In this document: piece after piece, positions 10,127-63,111 of the stretch
How the letters are laid out: every line of letters begins with the position of its first letter
Numbering within the stretch: the first letter of the stretch is position 1
Assembly (NCBI GenBank): GCA_944381365.1
Contig: CALWKW010000002.1
Coordinates: 180,719 to 244,718 of the forward strand
Direction of reading: 5' to 3'
Length of the DNA stretch: 64,000 nt
Source of the DNA: an uncultured Christensenellaceae bacterium
GTDB taxonomy: Bacteria > Bacillota > Clostridia > Christensenellales > UBA3700
Position numbers and translations under genes: made by a program
Notes under the pieces: model-generated
Database searches by the model: none
What the model was told of the DNA's origin: nothing
Seen by the model: only the letters and a program-made list of their open reading frames with translations

Positions 10127-10167
10127 TAATATATACAATTTACCTAAGGCTTAAATTGTATATATTA
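10127..10167 (-). repeat. Dispersed spacer palindrome, copy 1
   Basis: TAATATATACAATTTA-CCTAAGGCT-TAAATTGTATATATTA; perfect 16-bp arms; spacer reads AGCCTTAGG on minus. Confidence 0.95.
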
Positions 10168-10199
10168 GACTCTCTTCGTGCGTGCATGCGTATATACGC

Positions 10200-10230
10200 A
10201 AAAGACGACTCATTTTACGAGTCGTCTTTT
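10200..10230. terminator. Bidirectional intrinsic terminator
   Basis: AAAAGACGACTC-ATTTTAC-GAGTCGTCTTTT downstream of the DUF1858 gene. Confidence 0.85.
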
Positions 10231-10250
10231 AATTTTAATAAAACTTTTAA

Positions 10251-10373
10251 GCCCTTGGAGATTAGTGCAGAGTTGCGATTTTGAAGAGAGTTCGCGAACG
10301 GAGCGTACTTTCCGTACGTGACTGAGCACAACTGCTCGCACTAAATTGCAAATATGTGCTGATATACAAGGGC
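10251..10373 (+). repeat. 123-nt long imperfect hairpin, MITE/REP-like element
   Basis: GCCCTTG...CAAGGGC termini; 33 stacked positions give 24 WC, 4 G-U, 5 mismatches; inner CGTAC/GTACG and GAGCA/TGCTC hairpins. Confidence 0.55.
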
Positions 10374-10380
10374 ACCATTA

Positions 10381-10587
10381 TTATTCTTCTCCAGCCACTT
10401 CGTTGAGTTTTTTTACAAGCTCATCTACATCAACGCCGTGCACCATAGCTGCCTCTTCGATTGTTTCGCCTCTTGCCATTGCACAACCAAAACAGTGCAT
10501 TCCTATGCTGAGCAAAGTTTCTGCGATAGCTTCTGCATTCTTATGCTGAAGTGCTTCTGCGATAAGCATGTCTTTTGTTATTGCCAT
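10381..10587 (-). CDS. DUF1858 domain protein
   Basis: 68 aa, GMHCFGCAMARGETIEEAAMVHG signature; AGGAGG RBS. Confidence 0.88.
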   Translation of the reverse strand: MAITKDMLIAEALQHKNAEAIAETLLSIGMHCFGCAMARGETIEEAAMVHGVDVDELVKKLNEVAGEE

Positions 10588-10652
10588 ATTATATGCCTCC
10601 TATAATCTTTTCGTATGTATTATAAACCATTATTGACATTTTGGCTATTATT

Positions 10653-11786
10653 TTACATAAAATATTTGATATAAATCCACACTGCCAAAGCCACAACCGC
10701 TCCAACCGCCAATACAATCGCCGATATCTTGAAAGGCGACTTGGGATATTTTCCTATAATCTTGCCCGTGCGTCCGTTGGCTATACAGCCGTATGTCTTT
10801 TTTTGGTACTTATAGCTGAATACCCATATCGGCACCAAAATGTATTTGTAGGTAATGTCATTGTATGAATTGTTCATATTGACATAATCCACTACATCCG
10901 CATTGTATCTGGATATTATCATCTGCTTGATGACTGAGTCCATTATGACTACTGCATCGGAAAAACTCTCATCCAAGCTCCTGTCATATCTTTCTGCCGA
11001 ATATCCGCTTATGAATTGATTGTGATAACTCGATGCATTGTCTGTATCGAATCCGCCAAGCTTGCTCAAAGTTTTTTGGTCTATGCTCTTGCTGGCTTCT
11101 ACCTGAACATCATTGAAAAAATTGGATATTACACCGCTGTCGAGATACCAACGGGTACGAGTCTCCGTGCGTCTGTTTTTTCCCGTGCCTACCGTGACGG
11201 TATAATGCTTGCCGTATCTTATGGTATAAGTGCCGTTGCACATACTGTCAAAAGTAAATACAGGTATATAAACTCCCTGACTAGGCTGTTTGCTAGCTTC
11301 CTTTTTAAGCTTGAAGGGTGCAAGATGTTTGCCTTTGAGCCATTTTTTATAATATACATGCACATCTTCTTTGCTTATTCTGAACGGAAGAATGCCGTTT
11401 GGCTGAAGTCCGGGGATTTCATCAAGCTCGACTATATTCGATGCCCCGCAAAAAGGACATTTTGCCGCTGTCTCGTATTGAGAAAGCATTGTTACCGCCC
11501 CGCATGAACGGCATCTTATGCTTTTTACTCCCTGCCAAGCTATAAACTGATTTTCTACATTCTGATGATACGGCAGCTCTTTTGCATCTTCCACAGCTTG
11601 AAGTTCGACAAGAGTGTCGCAATATTCACACTTGAGTTTATTGCTTTTGGGATCATAAGACAAAAAGTTTCCGCAGTTAGGACATTTGTATATTTTGCTT
11701 TCGAGAATTTCCTCTTGTTTTTCTTGCTGAGCTTCTTGTACTTTGTTTTCGCTATCAATAATGTTCGGATTGTTCTGATTTTCCAT
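10653..11786 (-). CDS. Zinc-ribbon membrane-anchored protein (YdjG-like)
   Basis: Four CxxC motifs N-terminal; NGRTGK motif; C-terminal TM helix; next to an SPFH gene. Confidence 0.7.
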   Translation of the reverse strand: MENQNNPNIIDSENKVQEAQQEKQEEILESKIYKCPNCGNFLSYDPKSNKLKCEYCDTLVELQAVEDAKELPYHQNVENQFIAWQGVKSIRCRSCGAVTMLSQYETAAKCPFCGASNIVELDEIPGLQPNGILPFRISKEDVHVYYKKWLKGKHLAPFKLKKEASKQPSQGVYIPVFTFDSMCNGTYTIRYGKHYTVTVGTGKNRRTETRTRWYLDSGVISNFFNDVQVEASKSIDQKTLSKLGGFDTDNASSYHNQFISGYSAERYDRSLDESFSDAVVIMDSVIKQMIISRYNADVVDYVNMNNSYNDITYKYILVPIWVFSYKYQKKTYGCIANGRTGKIIGKYPKSPFKISAIVLAVGAVVALAVWIYIKYFM

Positions 11787-11800
11787 TTTATCCTCGCTGA

Positions 11801-12940
11801 TTATTGTTTAGCTCCGCATTCAGGACAGAACTTCTGATTGGATTTGAGTTTTGCTCCGCATTCTTTACATACTCTTTCGTTCAAATTCGCACCGCACTCG
11901 GGACAGAATTTGACTTTTGTTCCTATCTCCGCTCCGCAGGAAGGACAAACCTTCTTGGGAGGCTTCATTGTCTGACCGCATTCAGGACAGAACTTCGCCT
12001 TCTTGCCTACACTTGCTCCGCAGTTGGGACATGTAAGTTTTTCTTCCGGCTCTTTTACAGCAGTAGGATTGCTCACTGTCGCCATATTGTCGGCAAATAC
12101 CTTTCCAAATCCGAGACCGGCTCCAAGACCGATACCCATACCGCTTACTCCGTTGGGATTCTTTGCGGCGTCTCTCATAGCCTCGAGAGTCTCCATCTGA
12201 GCATGCTGCTGCATTACTCCGCTCATCACGCCGACATTCGTACGCTTGTCGAGCATCTTCTCCACTTCTTCGGGCAAAGAGAGATTTTCGATATACAAAG
12301 ACTTTATCTCTATACCTATCTTTTCAAATTCCTCTGCCATCTTTTGCTTTGCCATTTCAGCAAGCTCGTCATAGCTTGCCGCAAGGTCAAGAGCGGGAAT
12401 TTTTGATTCTGCTATTACATTGGACAAAGTAGATGTGATTATCTTTTTGAAATAATCGTCTACATTCTTAACCGTATAGTTGTTCATCGAGCCGATAAGT
12501 TCTCTCAATGCGTTTGTAGGCGTGCCTACCGAGAAAGAGTAAACGCCAAAGCCTCTTACTCTCACCATGCCGAAATCCTTATCTCTCATCATGATAGGGT
12601 TGGCAGTACCCCACTTCATATTCGTAAACTGCTTTGTCGATACGAAATATACATCTCCCGTATAAGGGCTTTCCCAAAGATATTTCCAATTATACAACTG
12701 CGTCAACAAAGGCAGGTTTTTTATATCATCGAGTTTATATGTACCGGGACCGAACACATCGGCAAGCTTACCTTCTTGTATAAACATCGCCTTTTGTCCT
12801 TCTCTTACTACGAGAACGGACTTTTTCATAATCTCCTCTTTTTTCTCGAGAGGATATTTATAAATTATGTCGTTTTCGTTGTCGCTTTCCCATTGAATTA
12901 CTTTTCTGAATTGTTTTTTCAAAAAACTTCCGAATCCCAT
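11801..12940 (-). CDS. SPFH-domain protein with C-terminal zinc ribbons (YdjI-like)
   Basis: KWGTANPI and GMVRVRGFG motifs; three CxxCG...KFCPECG repeats. Confidence 0.85.
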   Translation of the reverse strand: MGFGSFLKKQFRKVIQWESDNENDIIYKYPLEKKEEIMKKSVLVVREGQKAMFIQEGKLADVFGPGTYKLDDIKNLPLLTQLYNWKYLWESPYTGDVYFVSTKQFTNMKWGTANPIMMRDKDFGMVRVRGFGVYSFSVGTPTNALRELIGSMNNYTVKNVDDYFKKIITSTLSNVIAESKIPALDLAASYDELAEMAKQKMAEEFEKIGIEIKSLYIENLSLPEEVEKMLDKRTNVGVMSGVMQQHAQMETLEAMRDAAKNPNGVSGMGIGLGAGLGFGKVFADNMATVSNPTAVKEPEEKLTCPNCGASVGKKAKFCPECGQTMKPPKKVCPSCGAEIGTKVKFCPECGANLNERVCKECGAKLKSNQKFCPECGAKQ

Positions 12941-13140
12941 AATTGTATCTCCTTTTTTTTGTCAATTGACATTCTATATATATTTTAATATGTATTGTAT
13001 TATTATGTCAAGATGTAATTTTTAAAGCTTATGACAAATTTACGATAAATATATATCAAAATCTTGTTTTTATCTTGCCGTTGTTGTGACAGCTTTCGAC
13101 AAAATTGAATATAAATTATTTTTACGGCATATTATTTGGT

Positions 13141-14583
13141 ATGACAAAAAATATTTCTGATTTCATCAAAAAACTATGTTGTTTTGTATGCACTCTTTTG
13201 TGTATATTTTGCATAATACCCTTTGCAGCCTGCGAAAAGGATATTAAAGAGCCCGATACTACATATTCGATATGGCTTGACATAAGAGAAGACAAAATAT
13301 ATTGCACGCAAAGTGTATCTTTTGTCAATAAAAGCGAATATATCCTCGACAATCTTGTGTTTAATGTCTATGCAAATGCCTACGATTCGTCAAAGCCTTT
13401 GCCATGCACTTCTCAAGAAGAGCAAGACGCATATCCAAACGGAGTCAGCTTTGGCAAATTCGAGCTTGACAATGTCTATGGCGACTTCAAAAGCTATAAT
13501 TTTGACAGCGACAAAAATCTCATCACAATAATGCTCGATAAAGATTTATTGCCAAACCAAAGCACAAAAATAGAATTTGTCTATACTCTTGTGCCGCCAA
13601 ACACGAATTTGAGATACGGCTACAACGATATCTGCCTATCTCTCACAGGTTTTTATCCTCAACTTTGTGCACTCGTGGACGGCGAATGGTTTTCAAGAGA
13701 ATTTTCTCCGATAGGAGATCCCTATTTCAGCGATACTGCCGATTATGAGGTATGCTTCAATCTTCCTGACGAATGTCAATATGTTTGCAGCGGATTGTCA
13801 GATACAGAGGAAAAACAAGGAGAGACTTTTGTCTATACCAAAGCAAGCGATATAAGGGATTTTGCAATCATCATATCGCCCGTCCTCGACAAAACAATGA
13901 CGATACACAACGGCGTGGAGATAAGCTATTTGGGAAAATCTTCTGAAGTCGTAGAATACGCAAAAAAAGCCTTGGACACTTACAGCGAGATTTTCGGAGA
14001 ATATGCGTACGATTCTTTGGCTCTTGCAAACATACCCTTTTTGGCGGGAGGTATGGAGTACGGAGCTTTGTGCGTGCTCAATGACCAGCTTACGGGCATA
14101 GACACAGAAAGCGTGACAGCTCACGAGGTAGCACACGAGTGGTGGTACTCCGCCTTGGGAAGCAACAATCTTATAGACGCTTGGCAGGACGAAGGACTTG
14201 CCGAGTATTCGACATATCTTTATTTTGAAAAAAACGGCAGAAAGGATGTCGCAGATTTACTTCTAAATGACGCTTATGTGCAATACGGAAACTTTAAAGA
14301 ACTCGGCATAAAAGTAGGCGAACCCGTGACAGGTATGCTGGCAGGCGAACTTAATTCTTTTGCAAGCAATTATCACTATACAAATCTTACCTACAACAAA
14401 GCATTCATATTGTGGGACTACGCATCGAACTGTATGGGAAAAGATAATCTTCTGAAAGCACTGAGATATTATTATTTGTCAAACAAGTTTGCTATCGCAA
14501 CGCCCGATGATTTGTATAATGCTCTGGACAATACAAAAGCGGGAACAAGCTCGATTCTCAAAAGCTGGATAAATAATTGTTGA
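13141..14583 (+). CDS. M1-family zinc aminopeptidase, probable lipoprotein
   Basis: GGMEY, HEVAHEWW and downstream DEGLAEY; lipobox-like FAAC; ATG 13141 preferred over TTG 13105. Confidence 0.85.
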   Translation: MTKNISDFIKKLCCFVCTLLCIFCIIPFAACEKDIKEPDTTYSIWLDIREDKIYCTQSVSFVNKSEYILDNLVFNVYANAYDSSKPLPCTSQEEQDAYPNGVSFGKFELDNVYGDFKSYNFDSDKNLITIMLDKDLLPNQSTKIEFVYTLVPPNTNLRYGYNDICLSLTGFYPQLCALVDGEWFSREFSPIGDPYFSDTADYEVCFNLPDECQYVCSGLSDTEEKQGETFVYTKASDIRDFAIIISPVLDKTMTIHNGVEISYLGKSSEVVEYAKKALDTYSEIFGEYAYDSLALANIPFLAGGMEYGALCVLNDQLTGIDTESVTAHEVAHEWWYSALGSNNLIDAWQDEGLAEYSTYLYFEKNGRKDVADLLLNDAYVQYGNFKELGIKVGEPVTGMLAGELNSFASNYHYTNLTYNKAFILWDYASNCMGKDNLLKALRYYYLSNKFAIATPDDLYNALDNTKAGTSSILKSWINNC

Positions 14584-14620
14584 GATAAATCGTCAAGGCA
14601 AAATATTCCATAATAAAAAT

Positions 14621-14650
14621 GTATAAAACTTTATATCATTTTCCATAATA
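14621..14650 (+). promoter_or_regulatory. Putative sigmaG (forespore) promoter
   Basis: GTATA-N18-CATAATA matches the B. subtilis sigmaG consensus; ~40 bp before the small Q/N-rich ORF. Confidence 0.6.
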
Positions 14651-14689
14651 AAAGTGTAGTCTTAAAGACTAACAAAACAGGAGGATAAT

Positions 14690-14803
14690 ATGAAGAATTA
14701 TCAATCACAACAACAGAATCAATCAAACAATCAGAAGAACAAGACCAATAGCAACGGTCAATCTCAACCCAGCAACTGCCAAAACTGCGGCAAGAACAAC
14801 TAA
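14690..14803 (+). CDS. 37-aa Gln/Asn-rich small protein, probably spore-associated (not in ORF track)
   Basis: MKNYQSQQQNQSNNQKNKTNSNGQSQPSNCQNCGKNN; AGGAGG RBS; own promoter and terminator. Confidence 0.8.
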   Translation: MKNYQSQQQNQSNNQKNKTNSNGQSQPSNCQNCGKNN

Positions 14804-14826
14804 TTGTAAGGTTGAACAACACAAAT

Positions 14827-14857
14827 AAAAAGGCGGGGAGCGATTCCCCGTCTTTTT
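14827..14857. terminator. Bidirectional intrinsic terminator
   Basis: AAAAAGGCGGGGA-GCGAT-TCCCCGTCTTTTT. Confidence 0.85.
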
Positions 14858-14910
14858 AAAGTTATGGATAGGTCGTCATTTAGACCTTGTAATGGCTTTT
14901 GTCATCAATA

Positions 14911-14939
14911 ATTCTATAAGAAGATTTCTTCTTTGTCAA
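14911..14939 (-). promoter_or_regulatory. SigmaA promoter divergent from the XRE gene, with a palindromic operator-like site in the spacer
   Basis: TTGACA-N17-TAGAAT on minus; AAGAAG-ATTT-CTTCTT at 14918-14933. Confidence 0.6.
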
Positions 14940-14973
14940 GCTTTTTCAAGAATTTTTCTTCTATACTTGAACT

Positions 14974-15171
14974 ATGAATATAGGCGAAACGATAAAAGAA
15001 TTAAGAATAGAGAGAAATCTATCACAACAAAAACTTGCATCGGCTATCGGCGTAAGTCAAAAAGCCATAGACTATTGGGAGCGAGGCGTCAACGAACCTA
15101 AGGCTAGTTATGTAGCTCTTCTTGCCGACTTTTTCAATGTCAGCTGCGATTATTTGCTGGGAAGAGAATAA
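14974..15171 (+). CDS. Solo XRE-family helix-turn-helix regulator
   Basis: IKELRIERNLSQQKLA..IGVSQKAIDYWERG..EP and VSCDYLLG; no SD, TATACT 6 nt before ATG. Confidence 0.92.
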   Translation: MNIGETIKELRIERNLSQQKLASAIGVSQKAIDYWERGVNEPKASYVALLADFFNVSCDYLLGRE

Positions 15172-15204
15172 AATCGCAATCATATCTTTAATATTTGAAA
15201 TTAT

Positions 15205-15229
15205 GCGGTCTTAATAGACCGCTTTTTTT
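15205..15229 (+). terminator. Intrinsic terminator of the XRE gene
   Basis: GCGGTCT-TAAT-AGACCGC followed by T7. Confidence 0.85.
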
Positions 15230-15295
15230 ATTACCAAATCTACTAAAAAGGGTTATCTCAACGCATGTGCAGGCGTGCGTGCGTATTGTTTACTT

Positions 15296-15336
15296 TAATT
15301 TATACAATTTAAGTCTTGGGTAAATTGTATAAATTA
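15296..15336 (+). repeat. Dispersed spacer palindrome, copy 2
   Basis: TAATTTATACAATTTA-AGTCTTGGG-TAAATTGTATAAATTA; perfect 16-bp arms. Confidence 0.95.
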
Positions 15337-15582
15337 TTTATTATATATTATATAAGCAAATTATATAGGCTGTAATATTGGCATTGGATAGGGGGCGATT
15401 TTGCGAATTTATAACGGCTGCCTTGAATCCATAACTATTTATCAACTCGTTGCGACCTTAAAAAGAGTGTTATTTTTGCTTTTTCAAGACATACTGCGAC
15501 AAGAGCATACTTTATGCATGTGACTTAAAAGGAGTGTTGCATATAAAAGCAAAAAAGCACGCCCTTATACAAGTTAGCACCC

Positions 15583-15699
15583 AAAAAGAAAGCCGGCACA
15601 GCATTTCTGCTGTGCCGACTTCCAATTATATGATAAGGGGGAAAATTATGAGCTATTTATGTCTGTAAACTTATTTACTTGTTCGTAAATCTTATTTAC
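15583..15699 (-). ncRNA. Candidate trans-acting sRNA (~117 nt) with C-rich anti-SD-like segment
   Basis: TTGACA-N17-TATATT with extended -10 TG (15706-15734); TTTTCCCCCTTA; CGGCACAGCA/TGCTGTGCCG terminator with U tract; no SD-led ORF. Confidence 0.65.
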
Positions 15700-15984
15700 A
15701 GGCATAATATACCACCCTAAAAAATTTTTGTCAACAGTTTTTTCAAAGAATTTTAAAGATTTTACATTATTTTAATAAATTTAGTTTTTTTAGCTCAATT
15801 TTCTTCTAATTTTTAAGATTTTTTTAATATATCACTATTTTTTGCCTTTTATTTTTAATATTTTGTTTACAAATTTTACTTTTATCATAAAAAAGACCGC
15901 CTTTTGGTAAATATATTCTCAAAAGACGGTTGTTTTTTTAATTCAATTTTTACTTTTATGATAAACTAAGAAGTTTTTATTCTG

Positions 15985-17166
15985 TCATCTACAGTGCTTT
16001 ATTATAAAATCTTCTATTCTGTCCATTGCTTTTTGAAGATTGTTGAGAGAATAAGCATAGCTGATTCTTACAAAATCTTTTCCGCTCTCTCCGAAAGCTC
16101 CGCCGGGGACTACTGCCACTTTGCTCTTTTCAAGAAGTTTTTCTGCAAACTCCTCTCCGTTCATTCCCGTAGACCTTACGCAAGGGAAAACATAAAATGC
16201 TCCCTTAGGATCAAAACATTGCAATCCCATGCCGTTTAGTCTGGATACCAAGAATCTTCTTCTCATATCATATTGCTCTCTCATATTCTCTATCTCGGCA
16301 AAGTTGTCCTCAAATCCCATTCTTAAAGCCTCGAGTCCCGCATACTGAGCACTCGTAGGAGCACACATTATTATGTACTGATGTATTTTGAGCATTTGCT
16401 TGAATATTTCGTTTGGAGCACATACATATCCTATTCTCCAGCCTGTCATGGCAAAAGCCTTGCTAAAGCCGTTGATGAGTATAGTTCTCTCCCACATATC
16501 GTCTATCGAAGAAAAGCAAACATGTTTTCCTTCATAAGTCAATTCGCTGTATATCTCATCGCTTATCACGATAAGGTCATGCTTTTTTACTACCTTGGCA
16601 ATAGCTTGCATATCCTCTTTTCGCATTACCGCACCGGTAGGATTGTTGGGGTAAGGCAAAATCAAAGCTTTTGTCCTCGATGTGATGACTTTTTCGAGAT
16701 TTTCTGGAGTAAGTCTGAATTCGTCCTCCACAAAGCATTTTGCACTCACTGCTTTTCCTCCGCAAAACGCAACGCTGGGGGCATAAGACACATAGCTGGG
16801 ATCAGGCACGATGACTTCGTCATTGTCATTGATAATTGCCCTTAAAGCAAGATATATAGCCTCGCTGGCTCCCACCGTGACGAATATTTCTTTTTCGGGA
16901 TTATAGTTGACATCATACCTTACCTTCAAAAACTTTGATATGTATTCTCTCAAGGCAGGCAAACCGCTGTTGCTCGTGTATTGAGTAAGCCCTTTTCTGA
17001 TGCTCTGAATACCAGCTTCCCTTGCACACCAAGGCGTGTCAAAGTCAGGCTCGCCTACTCCCAAAGATATTGCGTCCTTGTATGTGGAAGCTATGTCAAA
17101 AAATTTCCTTATGCCTGAAGGCGGAATATTTTTTACTATGTCGCTGAAGTATTTGTCGTAATTCAT
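15985..17166 (-). CDS. Class I/II PLP aminotransferase (YugH/AlaT-like)
   Basis: SLGVGEPDF, PNNPTG, SDEIY and SKAFAMTGWRIG motifs. Confidence 0.95.
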   Translation of the reverse strand: MNYDKYFSDIVKNIPPSGIRKFFDIASTYKDAISLGVGEPDFDTPWCAREAGIQSIRKGLTQYTSNSGLPALREYISKFLKVRYDVNYNPEKEIFVTVGASEAIYLALRAIINDNDEVIVPDPSYVSYAPSVAFCGGKAVSAKCFVEDEFRLTPENLEKVITSRTKALILPYPNNPTGAVMRKEDMQAIAKVVKKHDLIVISDEIYSELTYEGKHVCFSSIDDMWERTILINGFSKAFAMTGWRIGYVCAPNEIFKQMLKIHQYIIMCAPTSAQYAGLEALRMGFEDNFAEIENMREQYDMRRRFLVSRLNGMGLQCFDPKGAFYVFPCVRSTGMNGEEFAEKLLEKSKVAVVPGGAFGESGKDFVRISYAYSLNNLQKAMDRIEDFIIKHCR

Positions 17167-26743: not shown

Positions 26744-27655
26744 TTACTCGCCGACAGTGACCCACTCTAAAAGTGCCATTCTTGTGGCAACGCCGTTTGT
26801 GACTTGTTCGTCCTTAAGGCACATATCACTGTCAAGCACATCGCAATCCACTTCTATGCCCCTGTTTGCAGGTCCGGGGTGCATTACTATCGCACCTTTG
26901 TTTGCCATAGCCATTCTTTCCATTGTCACACCGTAGAAGTGATTGTATTCCTCAACGCTCGGGAAAAGTCCTTTTTGCTGTCTTTCGAGCTGTATTCTGA
27001 GCCCCATTATTACATCGCTTCCCTTAAAAGCTTCTTCCACGCTCTTGCATATCTTGCAAGGCTGGTTTTCTATGCCTTTGGGCAAAAGAGTGTTTGGAGC
27101 GAATATCTTGACTTTTGCACCCATTTTGCTAAGTCCCACTATATTGCTTTGTGCCACACGGGAATGCTTGACATCTCCTATGATAGCCACTTCGAGTCCT
27201 TTTATCTCTCCGAATCTCTCACGCATGGTGTACATATCGAGAAGTGCCTGCGTGGGATGAGCATGCATACCGTCACCGCCGTTGACTACACTTGCTTTTA
27301 TATGTTTTGCAATGATATTGGGAGCACCTGCCACAGAGTGTCTTATTACTATTACATCTGTCATAAGTTTGTCAAGAGTGACAGCTGTATCTATAAGACT
27401 CTCGCCCTTCTTTACGCTCGAGCCCGAAGGGGAAATACCCACTACCTTTGCCCCCAAGTACTTGCCAGCGTCTTCAAAAGAACAACGAGTACGAGTACTG
27501 TTTTCATAAAAAAGCGTGACCATGCTCTTGCCTTTGAGAATGTCCAAAGCTTTGTTGCCCGCAACAATATTGGCTTTCATGAAATCTGCACGCTTTAACA
27601 AGCTTTTGATAAGCTCTTTGTCGGCATCTGCCATTGTCAAAAAATCTCTTTTCAT
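26744..27655 (-). CDS. pyrB: Aspartate carbamoyltransferase catalytic subunit
   Basis: FYENSTRT, HPTQALLD and MHPGP motifs. Confidence 0.97.
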   Translation of the reverse strand: MKRDFLTMADADKELIKSLLKRADFMKANIVAGNKALDILKGKSMVTLFYENSTRTRCSFEDAGKYLGAKVVGISPSGSSVKKGESLIDTAVTLDKLMTDVIVIRHSVAGAPNIIAKHIKASVVNGGDGMHAHPTQALLDMYTMRERFGEIKGLEVAIIGDVKHSRVAQSNIVGLSKMGAKVKIFAPNTLLPKGIENQPCKICKSVEEAFKGSDVIMGLRIQLERQQKGLFPSVEEYNHFYGVTMERMAMANKGAIVMHPGPANRGIEVDCDVLDSDMCLKDEQVTNGVATRMALLEWVTVGE

Positions 27656-27808: not shown

Positions 27809-27847
27809 TATTTATATAATTTACCTAAGACTTAAATTATATAAATA
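27809..27847 (-). repeat. Dispersed spacer palindrome, copy 3
   Basis: TATTTATATAATTTA-CCTAAGACT-TAAATTATATAAATA; perfect 15-bp arms with compensatory C>T/G>A. Confidence 0.93.
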
Positions 27848-27930
27848 GCCCCAAAAGCCGTATATTTTTTTATCTTAAATTATTTGTCAAAACTTTTTTG
27901 TCGCATATTTTTAAATCAGGCTTTTTGCAT

Positions 27931-27956
27931 AAAAAATACGCCCCCTAAGGAGCGTA
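27931..27956 (-). terminator. Intrinsic terminator after the ferredoxin and sORF
   Basis: Minus strand TACGCTCC-TTAG-GGGGCGTA followed by T6. Confidence 0.85.
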
Positions 27957-27960
27957 CATC

Positions 27961-28590: not shown

Positions 28591-29070
28591 TCATTCTTCT
28601 GTATTTTTATCGCAAAGAGGGACGAATTTTGCCCCTACGAAATCTGCTAATGAAAGAGGAGATATACATATCTGATGCCCGACTTTTCCTGCACTTACAT
28701 AAATTTCAGAAAAATTCTTTGCACTCTCGTCTATAAATGTCTTGAATCTCTTTTTCATGCCGATGGGCGAACATCCTCCGTGTATATATCCCGTGAGAGG
28801 TTCAAGCTCTTTTTGTTTTATCATGCTTACTGACTTAAAGCCCGCTTCCTTTGCCGCCATTTTCAAATCCAAAGTCGCACATACGGGCACGCAGAATACC
28901 GCATATTCTCTTTTGTCGCTTACCGTCACAAGCGTCTTGAATACGCATCGAGCGTCCTCGCCGAGTTGTCTTGCCACACTTTCGCCGTCAGTGATATCTG
29001 ATGGATATTCATATCCTTTGTATGCCACCTTTTTGGCATCGAGCATTCTCATAACATTGGTTTTTTCCAT
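28591..29070 (-). CDS. ybaK: Cys-tRNA(Pro) deacylase YbaK/EbsC
   Basis: KTNVMR, VFKTLVT and TGYIHGGCSPIGMK motifs; start set at MEKTN. Confidence 0.92.
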   Translation of the reverse strand: MEKTNVMRMLDAKKVAYKGYEYPSDITDGESVARQLGEDARCVFKTLVTVSDKREYAVFCVPVCATLDLKMAAKEAGFKSVSMIKQKELEPLTGYIHGGCSPIGMKKRFKTFIDESAKNFSEIYVSAGKVGHQICISPLSLADFVGAKFVPLCDKNTEE

Positions 29071-29156
29071 AAAACAAAATTCTCCAAAGAAATTTTTTTT
29101 GATTATATCACAAGCTTTTTTGAAAAGCAAACGGCAGAATGTATCTGCCGTCATTA

Positions 29157-38563: not shown

Positions 38564-38566
38564 GAT

Positions 38567-39566: not shown

Positions 39567-39657
39567 ATTTTGATTTATGAATATTTTTTGATTTTAAAAG
39601 ACTTGATTACTGATAATATATTACGCATACGCATTAAAATAATATAATATTCTACTA

Positions 39658-39696
39658 TATTTATACAATTTAAGCCTTAGGTAAATTGTATAAATA
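39658..39696 (+). repeat. Dispersed spacer palindrome, copy 4
   Basis: TATTTATACAATTTA-AGCCTTAGG-TAAATTGTATAAATA; perfect 15-bp arms. Confidence 0.95.
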
Positions 39697-39728
39697 GGGG
39701 ATCGCATGTATGCGTGCGTACAAAATAC

Positions 39729-40589
39729 CTAATCAAGCTTTTTTGTATCGTCTTCTTCTATCTTGTTTTCGCTGTTATCTTTTGCAGACTGCTCGAGCTT
39801 GAGTGCTTCTTTCTTACTGACATAACTTCTTATCCAAGGTATTATACCTATATCGAAATCTGCATCTGCAAGCATTTTGCCTTTTTCTTCTCTCGATTTG
39901 AATAGCTTTGAATTTACTACATAATACAGACAAAGTATTCCCACTACCACAAATGCGATCACTATTGCACTTATTACCTTAACCGCAGCACTTGCCGAAG
40001 GTATCACATAAGTGATGATTTCGCCCGTAATAATTTTAATGATAATCATATTGTCCGTTCCGTCAAAATTCTTATATATGACACCATTATGTATAAGTAC
40101 CGATACAAGCACCATTATTGCTACGCCTATAATAGGCACATAAATTTCTTTGATTTTGTATTTGTCGACATTGCATAGCAAAAGCAAACCGCAGAAAAAC
40201 AATACACTATGCTGTATTACCGCCATTACGATATAAAACACGCTTGATGTATCACTTACTATCGAATCCGGTGCGGCAATACCCGCTACTATATAAGCTA
40301 CTCCCGCAAGTGCCGAACAGAATCCTGCATAAGCTCGCATCTTTTTTATACCAAGCACAAAAGTAAAACCTAATACAAAATACGACATTTGCGAAAATTC
40401 TATGGGATACATAGATTTGCCGATAATGCGATAAACACTGAACTCTATCGTCTTGTAAACTAGCAAAACAAGACCGATTACAAAAAGAATAATAATGCTG
40501 ATTTTTCTTTTATCTCTCAAAAGCCAAGTTAAAAAAACAGCCAAAACACCAGCAAGCACTATAATAAGTGCCAACCACCAATACTCCAT
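39729..40589 (-). CDS. Integral membrane protein (possibly YwaF/TMEM164-like)
   Basis: About 7 hydrophobic segments; GGAGGTG RBS. Confidence 0.7.
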   Translation of the reverse strand: MEYWWLALIIVLAGVLAVFLTWLLRDKRKISIIILFVIGLVLLVYKTIEFSVYRIIGKSMYPIEFSQMSYFVLGFTFVLGIKKMRAYAGFCSALAGVAYIVAGIAAPDSIVSDTSSVFYIVMAVIQHSVLFFCGLLLLCNVDKYKIKEIYVPIIGVAIMVLVSVLIHNGVIYKNFDGTDNMIIIKIITGEIITYVIPSASAAVKVISAIVIAFVVVGILCLYYVVNSKLFKSREEKGKMLADADFDIGIIPWIRSYVSKKEALKLEQSAKDNSENKIEEDDTKKLD

Positions 40590-40948: not shown

Positions 40949-41024
40949 GCTAACGTGGCGCAGTAGGTAGCGCACATCATTGGTAATGATGAGGTCGGCA
41001 GTTCAAATCTGCTCGTTAGCTCCA
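40949..41024 (+). tRNA. tRNA-Thr(GGT)
   Basis: 76 nt cloverleaf: GCTAACG/CGTTAGC acceptor stem, CATCA-TTGGTAA-TGATG anticodon arm, GTTCAAATC T loop, encoded CCA. Confidence 0.97.
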
Positions 41025-41028
41025 AAAT

Positions 41029-41052
41029 ACCACCATTTATGGTGGTTTTTTT
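41029..41052 (+). terminator. Intrinsic terminator after tRNA-Thr (duplicated at ~41251-41273)
   Basis: ACCACCA-TTTA-TGGTGGT followed by a T tract. Confidence 0.88.
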
Positions 41053-41080: not shown

Positions 41081-41246
41081 TGGCGCAGCAGGCATTATGC
41101 GTATAGAAAACAATCCGGCGAATTGTTTTTAGCAAAATGAACCGCAATGTACCGACACTTTAAAAGTATTTCTCACTTTGTTTGCGGTCGAAAGCGCACA
41201 TCACCCTATGATGAGGTCGGCAGTTTTATCTCCCTCGTTAGCTCCA
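41081..41246 (+). pseudogene. Degenerate tRNA-Thr copy with the same 100-nt D-loop insert (copy B)
   Basis: TGGCGCAGCAGG-[41093-41192]-AGCGCACATCACCCTATGATGAGGTCGGCAGTTTTATCTCCCTCGTTAGCTCCA; anticodon and T loops broken. Confidence 0.85.
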
Positions 41247-41372
41247 AAATACCACCATTTATGGTGGTTTTTTGTTTGTAAGCTACCACTACATATTTTT
41301 ATTAAGCGATTATATGAATAAAAGAGCCTTGATAGTCAAAGCTCTTTTTGATATTTTATCAATCACATTTTT

Positions 41373-45302: not shown

Positions 45303-47030
45303 ATGGAAACAAAAATGATAAATCTTAAAATAAACGGAATTCCCGTGAGCGTACCCGAAGGTACGACAATATTGGAAGCGTCAAGAAAAGCTCATATCGA
45401 AATACCTACGCTTTGCTTTTTGAAAGATGTCAACTGCGTGGGCTCGTGTCGTATGTGCGTGGTAGAAGCGACAGGAGCGAGAGGACTCGTGGCGGCATGC
45501 GTATATCCTGTGGCTGAAGGCATGGAAGTAAGAACAAATACAGAAAAATGCAGACAGTCCAGAAAGATGACTCTCGAGCTTTTTTTGAGCAAACACAAAA
45601 AGAAATGTCTTTCCTGCGAAAGAAATCACAACTGCGAATTGCAAAAACTCTCTCTCGGTTATAGCGTGGACGAAGACAGATTCAAAGGCGAAGACTTTGT
45701 ACTTCCTATTGATACATCTACACCCTATGTTGTCAGAGACAACGATAAATGTATCAACTGCATGCGTTGTGTGGCGGCTTGCAAAAAACAAAATGTCAAC
45801 GCAATCGGTCCTATCGGAAGAGGATTTAATGTGCATATCGGAAGTGCCTTTGACAGACCTTTGGCAGAATCGCCTTGCGTAGGATGCGGACAATGTATAG
45901 TGGCATGCCCCGTAGGTGCACTTTCTGAAAAAAGCAATGTGGACGAAGTATGGAAAGCTTTGTCGGATAGTTCCAAAAAGGTAATCTTCTATACCGCTCC
46001 TTCTGTAAGAGCTACTTTGGGAGAAGCATTTGATTTGCCAATCGGCACGAATGTGGAAGGTAAAATGGTAGCTGCAATAAGAAGGCTAAATCCCTATGCG
46101 GTATTCAATATGGATGTAACTGCCGACCTTACCATAATGGAAGAAGCAAGCGAGCTTATAAACAGAATAAAGACAAACAAGCCTCTGCCTATGTTTACAT
46201 CATGCTGTCCTGCATGGATAAAATTTATCGAGCAGACATACCCCGAGTTTATTCCTCATATATCCACTTGCAAATCGCCTCAACAAATGTTTGGAGCTTT
46301 GATAAAAAGTTATTGGTGCGAAAAACACGATATCAATCCAAAAGATGTATTTGTAGTGAGCGTAATTCCCTGCACTGCCAAAAAATACGAGGCACAGAGA
46401 GAACAAATGCCTGATGATGTCGATGTAGCTCTCACCACAAGAGAACTTGCAAGAATGATAAAGACGGCAGGTATAAAATTTACGGAACTGCCCGATGAAG
46501 AATTTGACAATCCTTTTGCCGTGGGAAGCGGAGCGGGTACTATATTCGGTGCTACGGGTGGTGTAATGGAAGCAGCTCTTCGTACCGCAGCACACATGCT
46601 TGACGGAAACTTCGAAGTCTTGGACTTCTTTGCGGTAAGAGGTACAAAAGGCATAAAAGAAGCCACATATCTGGTGGCAGGACACACTCTGCATGTTGCG
46701 GTAGTTTCGGGATTGGACAATGCCAGAACTCTTGTCGAGCAAATCAAGTCTGGCGAAAAGAGTTTTGACTTTGTAGAAGTAATGTCTTGCCCCGGAGGAT
46801 GCGTAAACGGCGGCGGTCAACCTACCTTGTCAGACAGCGTAAGAAATTCTGTCGAGCTCAAAGAAGCCCGTGCTAAAGCACTGTATTCGAGCGACAATAA
46901 CAACGAGCTGAGAAGATCTGCCGATTCGCCCGTAATGACATTGCTTTATGAAGAATTTTTGGGATTCCCCAACAGCCATAAAGCTCACGAAATTCTGCAC
47001 ACTTCATATAAAGCACACAAGACTATATAA
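45303..47030 (+). CDS. hydA: FeFe-hydrogenase catalytic subunit (group A)
   Basis: H-cluster motifs TSCCPAW, IPCTAKKYE and EVMSCPGGCVNGGGQP; N-terminal F clusters. Confidence 0.96.
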   Translation: METKMINLKINGIPVSVPEGTTILEASRKAHIEIPTLCFLKDVNCVGSCRMCVVEATGARGLVAACVYPVAEGMEVRTNTEKCRQSRKMTLELFLSKHKKKCLSCERNHNCELQKLSLGYSVDEDRFKGEDFVLPIDTSTPYVVRDNDKCINCMRCVAACKKQNVNAIGPIGRGFNVHIGSAFDRPLAESPCVGCGQCIVACPVGALSEKSNVDEVWKALSDSSKKVIFYTAPSVRATLGEAFDLPIGTNVEGKMVAAIRRLNPYAVFNMDVTADLTIMEEASELINRIKTNKPLPMFTSCCPAWIKFIEQTYPEFIPHISTCKSPQQMFGALIKSYWCEKHDINPKDVFVVSVIPCTAKKYEAQREQMPDDVDVALTTRELARMIKTAGIKFTELPDEEFDNPFAVGSGAGTIFGATGGVMEAALRTAAHMLDGNFEVLDFFAVRGTKGIKEATYLVAGHTLHVAVVSGLDNARTLVEQIKSGEKSFDFVEVMSCPGGCVNGGGQPTLSDSVRNSVELKEARAKALYSSDNNNELRRSADSPVMTLLYEEFLGFPNSHKAHEILHTSYKAHKTI

Positions 47031-47090: not shown

Positions 47091-47126
47091 AAAAACAAGA
47101 CAGCTTGCATTTGCGAGCTGTCTTGT
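47091..47126. terminator. Terminator between convergent hydA and phosphatase genes
   Basis: ACAAGACAGCTTGC/GCGAGCTGTCTTGT stem with an A tract on the left. Confidence 0.8.
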
Positions 47127-47161
47127 GCGTATATGCGGATGCACGATAAGATAATTACTTC

Positions 47162-47202
47162 TAATTTATACAATTTAAGCCTTAGGTAAATTGTATAAAT
47201 TA
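47162..47202 (+). repeat. Dispersed spacer palindrome, copy 5
   Basis: TAATTTATACAATTTA-AGCCTTAGG-TAAATTGTATAAATTA; perfect 16-bp arms. Confidence 0.95.
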
Positions 47203-47238: not shown

Positions 47239-48344
47239 TTATTTGCTTATGATTGACTTGCAAAGCCAAGCTATCTGAGTATTGTCAATCACTTTAGGAA
47301 AATCCATATTTATATCGCCAAATACAAAATAAGGTACATTTGCCGAAGAATGCTCGCCCCTTGTGTACATGCCGTCATTGAGTTCTGAATCGCTCTCGCC
47401 GTTGTACTGAAGTCCGCCTGTTTCGTGGTCAGCCGTGACTATTACTACCGTATTTCCCAAAGCCTTTGCATATTCTACTACGGCTTTGATCGTGTTGTCA
47501 TAAGCCTTGACATGGCTTAGTGCTCCGTCAAGATCGTTTATATGACTGCACTTATCGATATGGCTCTCTTCTATCATCATAAAGAAGCCGTCTTCATCAG
47601 TCGAAATCTTGTCCAAAGCAATGGTAGCAAGATTTGCAAGAGTAGGTTTTTTATCTCCTCCGTCCTCGAGAGGTATTTCCTCAAATGAAGCAAAAACTTT
47701 ATCTTTGGACATATCCAAAGTGCTTATGCTGTCAGAAAAATCATATCCGCTTTTTCTATTTTGTCGCTCAAAGAAGCATATCTTTGAATATTGCTGCCGA
47801 AGAAAATATCTATATTGCTTTTGAGCTGGTCATCCAATATTCCGTCAATATCATTTCTGGAAGATGTATGAGCCGAGAATCCCGAGGGAGTAGCTCCGTC
47901 TACGCCTTCAGTGGCAAGTATAGCCGTGCTCATTCCAAGCGATACGGCAAGTTCTGTGGTGGATTGTTTTTCCTTGCCGAGATACTGACCTATATTTCCA
48001 TTGTCAGTCTTTGTGCCTGTGGCAAGTGCCGTAGCAGCAGCCGCACTGTCGGTAGGTCCAAACAAATTGCGGGAAAAAGTAGTCACTTCGCCTTTTATGG
48101 TAGCACTGTTCATAAACAATTCACCGTACCTAGCTTCCGCAGCTTTTATGTGATTGAATCCCATTCCGTCCCCTATCATGAGGATTACATTGAGCTTTTC
48201 TCCCTCATAATCGAGTTTTTCGATATTGTTGATTTTTACTGCTCTTGCTATACCCATCGATGCAAATACGACAGATATAATCAATATCACTGCAATTAAA
48301 GCAATTGCCGTGATTTTTATAATTCTTTTTTTTGTATTTTCCAT
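47239..48344 (-). pseudogene. Alkaline phosphatase split by a 1-nt frameshift
   Basis: 5' ORF has IGDGMG, TDSAAAATALATG and ATP; 3' ORF has FFMMIEE.HID..SH and VTADHETGG; adding one A at the A5 run (T5 at 47751-47755) joins them as IEKSGYDFSD. Confidence 0.85.
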
Positions 48345-48575
48345 AATTACCCTCGAATTATTTTTTATAATTATAGCACAACAAAACAAACTAAACAATA
48401 TCAAAAAATAAAAGTTTGATATTTATATAAACTTTGAAAAGATTTTGTAAGTTTTTTGTTATTTTTTATAAAATCCAAATTAGATATAAAAAAACTTTTA
48501 CTTTGCGATTGATTTGACCTTTATTATATATATATGTTAAAATATTTTATGTACTAATTAAACAAGGTGGACATT

Positions 48576-61086: not shown

Positions 61087-61692
61087 TTAGAATTCTTTTT
61101 TATTATATATTTTCAGTGAAATAAAATAGGAAACAATGATTGACAACAATATAACAAATAAACTAATTATACTTATTATTGCTCCTGATGTTATATTTAT
61201 CTTTTTAAATACAAATTCTGCAATGCCTATCATAAAACATACAGCTATTAATATTATGGCAATAAGAAATATCCTTGATTTTTCAACTCCGAATTTATAA
61301 ATAGCAGGCAAACAACAAGAAATCACTATTATTTGAAACAATATAAGTATTACCAATTCTGCCCAAGAATTTTCTTGTGTTTTGATTAAAGCAAAAGCAA
61401 CTATGCTAAAAAGATTTGCTATAATCCCCACTCCTACTCCTATAACATATTTTTCCAGAACTATTATTTTAGGATTAAGACCACTGGCAGCAACAAATTT
61501 TGGCCAACTGTCTCTTTCTTCATAAGCGAATGTGGTCATAATTATGCTTATTTCACTCACAATTCCCATTGCATATAAATAACTTATATTTTTTAATAAT
61601 ACTGATACGACAAAACAAATGATTACTGTGGCTAAATACCATAAAATCATTTTTTTTGTATTACATAAATCTTTAATCAACAATCCTATCAT
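61087..61692 (-). CDS. ABC-2 transporter permease
   Basis: MIGLLIKD start; KFGVEKSR; about 6 TM; C-terminal YNKKEF. Confidence 0.88.
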   Translation of the reverse strand: MIGLLIKDLCNTKKMILWYLATVIICFVVSVLLKNISYLYAMGIVSEISIIMTTFAYEERDSWPKFVAASGLNPKIIVLEKYVIGVGVGIIANLFSIVAFALIKTQENSWAELVILILFQIIVISCCLPAIYKFGVEKSRIFLIAIILIAVCFMIGIAEFVFKKINITSGAIISIISLFVILLSIIVSYFISLKIYNKKEF

Positions 61693-62534
61693 ATATTTTC
61701 TCCTTTAGAATAAAACAGCATTATATCTTCGAGTTTCACAGGTCTGTATTCAAAATTTGCGGGCATAAGTTTTTTTATTGCCAACAAATCCAAGCCATAA
61801 CTTCTTCTCAGAATTTTTACTATTGCATTCTTGTCCAATTCTTTTAAAATTTTTTCTTCTATGCCATAAACAGCATATTTTTCTAAAATTTTATCTTTTT
61901 CTTCGTCCAATTCTATTTTTCCTTTATGCAAATAAACTATATAATCGCATAATTTTTCCAAATCAGATGTAATGTGCGAAGATATTAACACTGATTTTTT
62001 GCCGTCTTGAATATAATCATACAACATTGATAATATTTCATCTCTCACGACAGGATCAAGTCCGCTTGTAGGTTCGTCAAGAATTAAAACATCATTGTCA
62101 TAAGAAAATGCCACTGCCAAAGCGAGCTGCATTTTCATGCCTTTTGAAAATGACTTGATTGATTGTTTTTTAGGCAAATTAAATTTGTTTACATAACTAT
62201 TAAATTTGTCGCTATGCCAAGTAGAATATATATTTTTTAAAACCTTATCTAATGTATTTATATTTAACTCCAAAGGCAATCCCGTATCATCCAACACAAC
62301 CCCTATTTTTTGTCTTTCTGATTTAGAAAGGGTGTTTATTTCTTTCCCTTTAAAAAAGATTTGTCCGCTGTCCGGATGGATTGCATTTATGATTGACTTA
62401 ATAATTGTACTTTTTCCTGCTCCGTTTTCTCCTACAAGCCCGACCACTACTCCCTCGGGAATACTGAATGAGATGTTTTTCAAATTAAATTCGCTGTATT
62501 GTTTGCATACATTTTTTAATTCAACTATTTTCAT
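61689..62534 (-). CDS. ABC transporter ATP-binding protein (YtrB-like)
   Basis: GENGAGKST, FSKGMKMQ and LDEPTSGLDP motifs; start at MKIVE. Confidence 0.93.
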   Translation of the reverse strand: MKIVELKNVCKQYSEFNLKNISFSIPEGVVVGLVGENGAGKSTIIKSIINAIHPDSGQIFFKGKEINTLSKSERQKIGVVLDDTGLPLELNINTLDKVLKNIYSTWHSDKFNSYVNKFNLPKKQSIKSFSKGMKMQLALAVAFSYDNDVLILDEPTSGLDPVVRDEILSMLYDYIQDGKKSVLISSHITSDLEKLCDYIVYLHKGKIELDEEKDKILEKYAVYGIEEKILKELDKNAIVKILRRSYGLDLLAIKKLMPANFEYRPVKLEDIMLFYSKGENI

Positions 62535-62542
62535 ATTAAATA

Positions 62543-62914
62543 TCAACCTCTGTAAATTAATTTTACGCAATTTATAAATTCTTCTTCGCTAATATTGCAT
62601 CTTTTTGCCAAATCGCTTGCTTTCGATATACATTCTTCCATTTCAGCAAGATTTTTTTCTCTTATAAATTCTTTATTTTTCTCTGCTACAAAACTACCTT
62701 TTCCTACTACAGAATAAATATATCCGTCCCTCTCCAAATCAGCGTATGCCCTTGCCGTTGTAATAACACTTATTCTTAAATCTTTTGCAAGCCCCCTTAT
62801 TGTCGGTAAAGCTTGCCCTTCTTTTAGTGTAGAATCTAAAATCATGTTTTTTATCTGCTCATATATTTGTTCATATAATGACTTATCTGATGTATTTGAT
62901 ATAAATATATTCAT
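62543..62914 (-). CDS. GntR/YtrA-family regulator
   Basis: LYEQI, LPTIRGLA, RAYADLE and GKGSFV motifs; short C-terminus. Confidence 0.94.
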   Translation of the reverse strand: MNIFISNTSDKSLYEQIYEQIKNMILDSTLKEGQALPTIRGLAKDLRISVITTARAYADLERDGYIYSVVGKGSFVAEKNKEFIREKNLAEMEECISKASDLAKRCNISEEEFINCVKLIYRG

Positions 62915-62931
62915 TTTTTCCTCTTTATTGA

Positions 62932-62973
62932 ATTGTATATATTGATTATATACAATATGACATTAAATGTCAA
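62932..62973 (-). promoter_or_regulatory. SigmaA promoter overlapped by a YtrA-type operator
   Basis: TTGACA-N17-TATAAT on minus (62945-62973); ATTGTATAT-N7-ATATACAAT, equal to TGTA-N13-TACA, at 62932-62956. Confidence 0.85.
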
Positions 62974-62998
62974 TAGATTAATAAAAAAATTTTTAGTT

Positions 62999-63035
62999 AA
63001 AAAGACATGACTTTGTCATAAAGTCATGTCTTTTT
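62999..63035. terminator. Bidirectional terminator downstream of the GH13 gene
   Basis: AAAAAGACATGACTTT-GTCAT-AAAGTCATGTCTTTTT. Confidence 0.88.
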
Positions 63036-63070
63036 ATTAATTATATTATATTTATTCTTTTATCATATAG

Positions 63071-63111
63071 TTATTTATATAATTTAAGCCTTAGGTAAAT
63101 TATATAAATAA
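63071..63111 (+). repeat. Dispersed spacer palindrome, copy 6
   Basis: TTATTTATATAATTTA-AGCCTTAGG-TAAATTATATAAATAA; perfect 16-bp arms, compensatory variant. Confidence 0.95.

Follow-up and report, generated by a model that had tools for sequence, protein, structure and literature searches.

A small family of conserved 41-bp extragenic palindromes with an inverting spacer at transcription-unit ends in Christensenellaceae-like Clostridia

A 64,000-nucleotide stretch of DNA from an uncultured Christensenellaceae bacterium (assembly GCA_944381365.1, contig CALWKW010000002.1, positions 180,719 to 244,718 of the forward strand), here called the window, contains six copies of a 41-bp palindrome made of two AT-rich 16-bp arms around a 9-bp asymmetric spacer, AGYCTTRGG. 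Together with 27 further copies in three related genomes these palindromes form a small, strongly constrained family in Christensenellaceae-like Clostridia. Members lie between convergent or tandem genes, their arms are kept complementary and similar between species at the same chromosomal positions, and the spacer is found in either direction at those positions. Our tentative interpretation, which we favor without holding it firmly, is that of an extragenic palindrome family resembling repetitive extragenic palindromic (REP) sequences and bacterial interspersed mosaic elements (BIMEs), and recognized by a putative sequence-specific factor at the ends of transcription units. A fixed polarity of the palindrome towards neighboring transcription terminators, which an earlier reading of the window's letters alone (the sequence-only reading) had proposed, did not extend to the related genomes.

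An inverted-repeat listing of the 64-kb window gave six repeats with arms of 15–16 nt, 100% complementarity and 9 nt between the arms (positions throughout count from the first letter of the window). Copy 1 (10127–10167, minus strand, 16-nt arms) is flanked on one side by a DUF1858 gene and its terminator and on the other by the region upstream of the S10 operon. Copy 2 (15296–15336, plus strand) lies between the convergent genes 13105–14583(+) and 15985–17166(-), while copy 3 (27809–27847, minus strand, 15-nt arms) is located between a ybaK-like gene, 28591–29154(-), and pyrB, 26744–27655(-). Copy 4 (39658–39696, plus strand, 15-nt arms) follows a dnaB/dnaI-like gene pair, 37127–39499(+), and is 33 bp from the stop codon of the gene 39729–40589(-). 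Copy 5 (47162–47202, plus strand) stands between an [FeFe] hydrogenase gene, 45303–47030(+), and a split alkaline-phosphatase gene, 47239–48404(-), and copy 6 (63071–63111, plus strand) lies 5 bp after the stop codon of an alpha-amylase-family gene, 63116–63976(-). Read on the strand given for each copy, the spacer is AGCCTTAGG in copies 1, 4, 5 and 6, AGTCTTGGG in copy 2 and AGTCTTAGG in copy 3.

The spacer motif AGYCTTRGG occurs eight times in the window against 1.23 expected matches, and the two surplus matches, at 15097 (minus) and 52707 (plus), have no arms. A 27-nt core allowing up to three mismatches finds exactly the six palindromes, against an expectation of 0. Predicted folding energies range from -8.1 to -10.6 kcal/mol as DNA and from -12.3 to -13.8 kcal/mol as RNA, the latter with z-scores of -4.6 to -6.4. 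The six copies fall within 53 kb (10127–63111), and regional enrichment is likewise seen in the related metagenome-assembled genomes (MAGs), where contigs CALWBV010000011.1, CALWHJ010000012.1 and CASERZ010000006.1 (54–79 kb) carry three copies each, of only 8–10 strict copies per MAG.

These relatives were found by a single scan of a genome contig collection with the strict 27-nt pattern, and the sequence read consisted of the window plus the 4 kb surrounding every strict hit. All 27 external copies come from three MAGs titled uncultured Christensenellaceae or Christensenella (CALWBV 10, CALWHJ 8 and CASERZ 9). As no MAG is identical to the window, the window represents a fourth, related genome. 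Its gene content is that of a Clostridia chromosome, including the S10 and pyr operons, holB, tmk, greA, rex and the dnaB/dnaI-like genes, as well as a group A6 [FeFe] hydrogenase, pfk, dnaE, whiA and murB.

Comparison of the loci with the window by blastn placed 12 of the 27 MAG copies in synteny with four window copies: copy 1 (L022, L016, L026), copy 4 (L002, L010, L017), copy 5 (L015, L024, L025) and copy 6 (L003, L006, L021). Genes flanking the syntenic loci are 73–79% identical to those of the window, with the S10 operon at about 90%. Between a window copy and its orthologue, 27 to 32 of the 32 arm positions are identical, whereas the 60-bp flanks show an identity of only 0.43–0.60, which is the level of shuffled sequence (mean 0.51, maximum 0.63). 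Of 18 orthologous positions that could have kept the core, 12 did so, and the search pattern did not cover the outer columns of the arms. Because the arms are kept while the flanks have reached the shuffled level, these comparisons indicate that the palindrome is under constraint, or continually corrected, at fixed positions. A search for degenerate copies (up to 12 mismatches in 41) found none beyond the 33 palindromes in the 169.5 kb examined.

At the orthologous positions the spacer does not keep its direction. Relative to the same flanking gene it is inverted in 7 of the 12 orthologues. In the group of copy 1, L016 and L026 are inverted with respect to the window and L022, and the flank on the rpsJ side is clearly conserved. 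L015 and L024 are inverted with respect to copy 5 beside a homologous terminator after hydA, and all three orthologues of copy 6 (L003, L006 and L021) are inverted. L025 points towards hydA as the window copy does, but the segment around it, close to the end of a contig and bounded by inverted copies of another repeat, is itself locally inverted.

The stem has kept its pairing as its sequence changed. In an alignment of the 33 copies (27 distinct rows, 16-bp stem) 97.2% of cells are paired, and four stem pairs change on both sides, in 20 cells; neither the covariation score nor this cell count was reached in any of 500 shuffles. Three of the four co-varying pairs are outside the search pattern, and the fourth was allowed to mismatch by the pattern and never does. 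Two-sided arm changes are also seen directly between orthologues, for example between copy 1 and L022 and between copy 6 and L021. That every copy is so strictly symmetrical suggests formation of the hairpin in vivo, where it would either be of importance or drive correction of one arm by the other. One copy departs from this pattern: the palindrome at 1994–2034 of L003 is a hybrid, with a left arm of the TATATA class and a right arm of the TAAATT class, and is the sole copy with unpaired inner stem cells. These hybrid arms suggest the footprint of an exchange between two copies.

By our reading of open reading frame lists and annotations, the flanking genes are convergent for 16 of the 33 copies, tandem for 15 and divergent for none; L025, at a contig end, could not be assigned, and L022 is ambiguous. 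Within the window a copy is present at three of five convergent junctions, none of five divergent junctions and three of roughly 50 tandem junctions. The proposal that the palindromes form a real repeat family in termination zones at transcription-unit boundaries is borne out by these counts.

Other motifs recur beside the palindromes. Runs of strictly alternating purines and pyrimidines were counted if at least 12 nt long with a GC fraction of at least 0.45. The 5.28 kb made up of sequence no more than 80 bp from a palindrome contains 25 of them and the other 162.9 kb contains 11, so that they are about 70-fold denser near palindromes. Four of the five runs of at least 14 nt in the window are within 40 bp of a palindrome, and most MAG loci have such a tract within 50 bp. 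The tracts are varied in sequence, show no strand polarity, are prone to form Z-DNA and often directly follow the T run of a terminator. In the window they include a GC-rich tract of 24 nt between terminator and copy 1 (10177–10200); two runs of 11 and 14 nt that are 9 bp from copy 2 and can also fold as a hairpin (15261–15286); a 13-nt run on the AG side of copy 4 (39622–39634) and a 20-nt run 5 bp away on its GG side (39703–39722); and a 14-nt run between hairpin and copy 5 (47124–47137). A 25–40 bp AT-rich tract often lies on the opposite side of the palindrome from the purine-pyrimidine tract. These tracts, the terminators and a second hairpin repeat recur near the copies, in varying order and on varying sides. 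The comparison with BIMEs offered by the sequence-only reading is apt as an analogy, the family occurring in a mosaic with terminators and other motifs at transcription-unit boundaries. Neither a conserved, freely flipping spacer nor an association with alternating purine-pyrimidine tracts is known to us from any described family, and the literature searches brought up none with them. The tracts were also considered as oriented Chi-like signals pointing at the palindrome, and this was rejected: k-mers are about as frequent as their reverse complements, and the best heptamer occurs on 9 versus 4 group-sides.

With respect to terminators, all of which are predictions here, the six window copies do share one arrangement. 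The nearest terminator-like hairpin lies on the AG side of the spacer in six of six, as had been claimed, at distances of 32, 73 (66 counting the T run), 87, 90, 35 and 34 bp for copies 1 to 6, and an RNAfold-based scan found no comparable hairpin within 100 bp on the GG side of any of the six. The hairpin beside copy 1 (10200–10230) has 12 pairs and T runs on both strands. Beside copy 2 there is a plus-strand hairpin with T run (15205–15229), where the terminator scan lists 15205–15222 and also 15261–15284, and beside copy 3 a minus-strand hairpin with T run (27928–27957), listed by that scan as 27957–27936. The bidirectional hairpin beside copy 4 (39538–39566) was found by both the terminator scan and the RNAfold scan. 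The hairpin of copy 5 (47095–47126, minus strand) is an inverted repeat with an energy of -19.2 kcal/mol in the RNAfold scan; because its T tail is on the minus strand only, it is predicted to terminate the minus-strand gene but not hydA. The AT-rich hairpin beside copy 6 (62998–63036, 17–18 pairs) appears in the inverted-repeat listing, the terminator scan and the RNAfold scan, and is 25 bp upstream of a consensus promoter (62973–62945, minus strand). All six hairpins named in the sequence-only reading therefore exist, but that of copy 5 is absent from the terminator-scan list.

These hairpins are heterogeneous. A T run is present on either strand of the hairpins next to copies 1, 4 and 6. 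Transcription heading towards the palindrome is terminated by the hairpins of copies 2 and 3, and transcription arriving from the palindrome side by that of copy 5. Since the hairpins differ in the direction of termination, copies 4, 5 and 6 are placed between a minus-strand stop codon and its terminator, in the 3' untranslated stretch, and copies 1 to 3 beyond the terminator. The replichore does not set the polarity either, as had been argued: almost all of the window has a negative GC skew, yet copies point both ways.

For comparison with the relatives, all 33 copies were oriented by their spacer and 250 bp on each side were scanned for a hairpin followed by a T run, counting hairpins of at most -10 kcal/mol and at most 36 nt within 100 bp of the palindrome. 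Under this rule the window gives six AG and no GG copies, and the 27 external copies give 7 AG, 7 GG and 13 with none. The length rule dropped four hairpins, those of L001 and L020 (GG), that of L021 (AG) and a nearer GG hairpin in L011; when they are restored the external count is 7 AG, 10 GG and 10 none. The terminator scan cited above for the window also found the lone GG-side terminators of L001 and L019, whereas it finds none at the GG-side hairpin that the RNAfold-based scan places in L015, and it sees only part of the AG-side hairpin of L005. Counted by orthologous group, where groups not matched to the window were assigned by eye, the external copies divide into 4 AG-only, 3 GG-only, 3 with both and 5 with none. 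The side relative to the nearest terminator was what the sequence-only reading had set as its refuting test, and on 27 copies from three related genomes it shows no preference. The calculation that six of six on one side has a two-sided chance of 1 in 32 stands, but the 27 independent copies do not repeat the pattern. A fixed polarity to the terminator, whether from oriented insertion or from a composite terminator-plus-site unit, is thus not supported by these counts, nor by the flipping of 7 of the 12 orthologues. The shared side in the window is coincidental and local, or reflects a weak tendency at best, and is no rule of the family. Two further polarities were compared: against the gene 3' end, tandem contexts give 11 AG versus 5 GG copies (about 7 versus 4 by group), which is not significant, and against the purine-pyrimidine tract the strict rule gives 7 AG, 2 GG and 4 groups with both, which is suggestive only.

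Rfam gave nothing at the palindromes, with the window searched at the gathering threshold, 20 of the 27 loci included, and positions 9300–16000 searched at E values up to 1. Canonical parS has 0 matches with two or fewer mismatches in the window, and copy 5 with its flanks, compared by blastn with plasmids and phages, gave a best E of 0.04 for a partial and unrelated match. No transposase, recombinase or common pathway was found with Pfam and NCBIfam among the 26, 61 and 18 flanking proteins of the window and the 27 loci, and no REP-associated tyrosine transposase (RAYT, an HUH Y1 transposase) among the proteins scanned there. An intrinsic terminator was rejected as the identity of the palindrome itself, as the stem has at most one G-C pair, the six palindromes are absent from the terminator lists and most copies lack a T run. 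A GTAG or CGTC tag is not conserved, the columns beside the stem being variable across all 33 copies. With regard to the features of miniature inverted-repeat transposable elements (MITEs), there is no direct repeat beside the stem, a TA duplication would be indistinguishable from the stem ends, and five copies are unique to one MAG. Literature searches found no publication with the core sequences; the papers found on Christensenellaceae palindromic or intergenic sequences were unrelated, and the literature on RAYT, REP and Clostridia and on Z-DNA and cruciforms served as background only.

Under the REP/BIME-like reading the palindrome would work at the DNA level and free of direction, either as a duplex or as an extruded hairpin or cruciform site that displays both loops. 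An RNA signal, or a strand-specific single-stranded DNA signal, is unlikely because both directions of the conserved spacer occur where transcription runs one way only, and also within a single replichore. We infer a sequence-specific factor that would read the double-stranded or extruded site and make it a boundary element. The spacer flips may arise by inversion within the palindrome or by conversion from a copy aligned the other way round, since a conservative two-site exchange cannot flip the spacer relative to a retained flank. A more elaborate version, in which the palindrome, its GC-rich purine-pyrimidine neighbor and the AT-rich tract together constitute a dedicated boundary device at transcription-unit ends, we regard as distinctly unlikely. 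In such a device a cruciform-capable and a Z-DNA-prone sequence would be read as a pair, in either direction, by a putative sequence-specific protein, and could serve as a supercoil sink, roadblock or loading site conserved across a family of uncultured gut Clostridia and uniform within each genome.

Several observations weigh against recognition by such a factor as the explanation of the family. The binding protein itself is putative. Site-specific, symmetric co-variation of the arms is atypical of ordinary dimer-binding sites, and is matched no less well by a hairpin substrate of the kind used by REP/RAYT or IS200-type enzymes. Change in the spacer has been concerted: all four window copies with orthologues have CCTTAGG, compared with TCTTGGG in all 12 MAG orthologues, which suggests conversion or turnover such as active repeats typically undergo. 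Gain and loss are evident, as five copies occur in a single MAG each and the strict pattern finds no orthologue of window copies 2 and 3 in the three MAGs. The strict pattern also biases the sample towards conserved copies, and all copy numbers are lower bounds. Finally, pooling window and external copies by orthologous group gives 10 AG-only against 3 GG-only groups, so that a weak polarity towards terminators may yet exist. Across all 27 external copies the spacer is AGTCTTGGG in 22, GGTCTTGGG in two and AGCCTTAGG in three; in the window, the spacer of copy 3 is intermediate and that of copy 2 has the MAG form.

The main rival explanation is a selfish or recently domesticated REP- or MITE-like hairpin without host function, copied as single-stranded DNA by a trans-acting HUH enzyme (RAYT or IS200-type) or another transposase. 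That transposase would be encoded elsewhere in the genome, and copies would accumulate in 3' intergenic regions because insertions are tolerated there. We hold this unlikely, though it accounts better than a bound site for symmetry, homogenization and turnover. Arms that co-vary on both sides are what a hairpin substrate would produce, and spacers made uniform within genomes, five single-genome copies, the missing orthologues of copies 2 and 3, the hybrid arms of L003 and the second, longer hairpin repeat in the same regions all agree with it, as does a convergent or tandem location matching that of REP families (PMC3733652). It accounts less well for the small number of copies, the absence of relics and the retention of position: there are only 8–10 strict copies per genome and no decayed copies in 169.5 kb, 12 of 18 orthologous positions are retained across species with saturated flanks, and no GTAG/CGTC tag beside the stem, no transposase near any of the 33 copies and no target-site duplication in the 33-copy alignment could be seen. 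Another rival is a core site for a tyrosine recombinase of the lox/FRT/dif type, at which recombination between copies would reshuffle or capture neighboring genes. The 16-9-16 architecture with inverted arms, a spacer conserved among the copies of one genome, the two arm classes joined in L003, and gene content that differs exactly at palindrome spacers (39729–40589 and the 61087–62914 operon are absent from the MAG orthologues, and neighbors also differ in L006/L021, L020 and L013) are compatible with this. Nevertheless we judge it very unlikely: conservative exchange cannot produce the flip against a retained flank that L016 and L026 exhibit, essential genes (hydrogenase operon, dnaE) are enclosed by copies 4, 5 and 6 as direct repeats, where active recombination would kill the cell, neither the window nor the loci yielded a recombinase, and such enzymes do not need perfect arm symmetry.

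Co-variation of the stem, its fold energy and z-scores as RNA, and the position of copies 4, 5 and 6 between stop codon and terminator could instead denote a transcribed hairpin of the 3' untranslated region (UTR), acting as a stabilizer, processing site or weak terminator, and the C to T and A to G spacer variants would be tolerable as G-U pairs on the AG strand only. This is very doubtful, because in the group of copy 1, with tandem genes and one direction of transcription, the spacer is inverted between species, so that the RNA loop becomes its complement while the DNA spacer is conserved; moreover, copies 1 to 3 are beyond terminators, most copies have no U tract and Rfam has no match. We give equally little credence to the model of the sequence-only reading, an oriented unit of terminator and site, or an oriented insertion, whose AG side always faces the terminator. 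The six-of-six arrangement, the 10 to 3 pooled group count and a shared order of terminator, purine-pyrimidine tract and palindrome with AG inwards in copies 1, 2 and 5, L004, L006/L021, L007 and L009 are in its favor. It is opposed by the external counts, whether rule-based (7 AG, 7 GG, 13 none) or manually corrected (7, 10, 10), by their division into 4, 3, 3 and 5 groups, by the 7 of 12 flipped orthologues and by the different directions in which the six window hairpins terminate relative to the palindrome. An operator of a transcription factor regulon, bound by a dimer or tetramer on the long dyad, seems to us hardly credible. A long and perfect dyad, sequence conservation across species and few copies per genome would suit an operator, but divergent gene pairs never enclose a copy, and 16 copies are in convergent intergenic regions, which have no promoter; the S10 leader is about 500 bp downstream of copy 1, and the neighboring genes share no common pathway.

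Comparison with known systems helps to place the family. BIMEs bind gyrase and IHF. The palindromes resemble the REP/BIME systems of enterobacteria and pseudomonads, including RAYT-associated REPs and REPINs, in being short, hairpin-capable and extragenic (41 bp here) with a convergent or tandem location, in often forming mosaics with other motifs (of varying order here), in occurring in either orientation and in keeping their arms complementary. They are unlike REPs in having no GTAG/CGTC tag and AT-rich rather than GC-rich arms, in numbering 8–10 strict copies per genome (a lower bound) with no decayed copies in 169.5 kb, and in retaining positions across species with saturated flanks, with no RAYT among the flanking proteins scanned. 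CIRCE, the HrcA operator, is a strongly conserved inverted repeat with few copies per genome and a 9-bp spacer that lacks sequence conservation; it is located in promoters and leaders of chaperone operons. Spacer length, strong cross-species conservation and low copy number are shared with the palindromes, which differ in never occurring in divergent promoter regions, in their conserved spacer and in their 16-bp arms. The lox, FRT and dif sites have two inverted arms and a short asymmetric spacer that gives polarity and is common to the sites of one genome. Inverted arms around an asymmetric spacer shared within a genome are also seen here; however, here the spacer flips against a retained flank, no recombinase is nearby and direct repeats surround essential genes.

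The parS sites are perfect palindromes, about ten per genome, position-conserved, direction-free and regionally enriched. The family has a perfect palindrome, about ten copies, conserved position, freedom of direction and regional enrichment in common with them, yet its sequence is unrelated, its length is 41 bp, its asymmetric spacer is conserved and it is linked to termination zones and purine-pyrimidine tracts. Minute inversions in plastid non-coding DNA are a mutational phenomenon in neutral hairpins, whose loop flips recurrently between lineages with the stem intact. A loop between perfect inverted repeats flips between related lineages here as well, but unlike in plastids both stem and loop sequence are conserved. 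REP sequences are short extragenic palindromes of 20–40 bp located downstream of genes, between convergent and tandem open reading frames (PMC3733652).

Should the palindrome prove to be a site at gene ends that a protein binds irrespective of direction, it would represent a new cis-element for chromosome organization or transcription insulation. The host lineage is poorly studied and consists mostly of uncultured gut bacteria, and the specific 41-bp sequence could serve as bait for its putative factor. One short element displays three processes, namely compensatory maintenance of a palindrome, recurrent inversion of its loop and homogenization of its spacer within genomes. It also carries a lesson, as a six-of-six polarity in one window did not survive 27 independent copies.

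The second repeat noted near the palindromes is about 125 nt long and folds into one long hairpin with 36 predicted pairs, of which 13 show two-sided changes. Its start is only a few bases past the stop codon of genes that are unrelated to one another (the DUF1858 gene, hydA and a 245-aa gene), and it shares several spacers with palindromes. Copies are located at 10257–10367 of the window, at 1342–1452, 1513–1583, 1634–1686 and 1844–1896 of L020, at 788–898 and 222–261 of L025 and at 2525–2635 of L001, with partial copies in L023, L015, L016 and L024. It resembles a MITE, a REPIN-like element or an RNA of the 3' UTR; no Rfam match to it was found. Hairpins with a recurring stem (CCACTCTC ... 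GAGRGTGG) stand 150–220 bp from the palindromes in L001, L015, L020, L023, L024, L025, L026 and L007, and in part belong to this long hairpin repeat.

Several genes adjacent to palindromes differ between the genomes. The gene at 39729–40589, directly beside palindrome 4, encodes 286 aa and gave no Pfam or NCBIfam match, and an operon of a GntR regulator and an ABC transporter (61087–62914) is directly beside palindrome 6. Neither is present at the corresponding syntenic loci of the three MAGs, and these stretches have a lower GC content (0.35–0.37). The alkaline-phosphatase gene by palindrome 5 is split in the window (47239–47718 and 47724–48404) and intact, with 369 aa, in L015 and L024.

Upstream of rpsJ, at 9426–9501 on the minus strand, an S10-Clostridia ribosomal leader scores 33.2 bits (E 6e-4), just below the gathering score of 35.1. 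A tRNA-Thr (GGT) gene at 40949–41024 is followed by a terminator hairpin (41029–41046), and a degenerate partial duplicate of its 3' half with the same hairpin (41251–41268) is located at 41170–41268.

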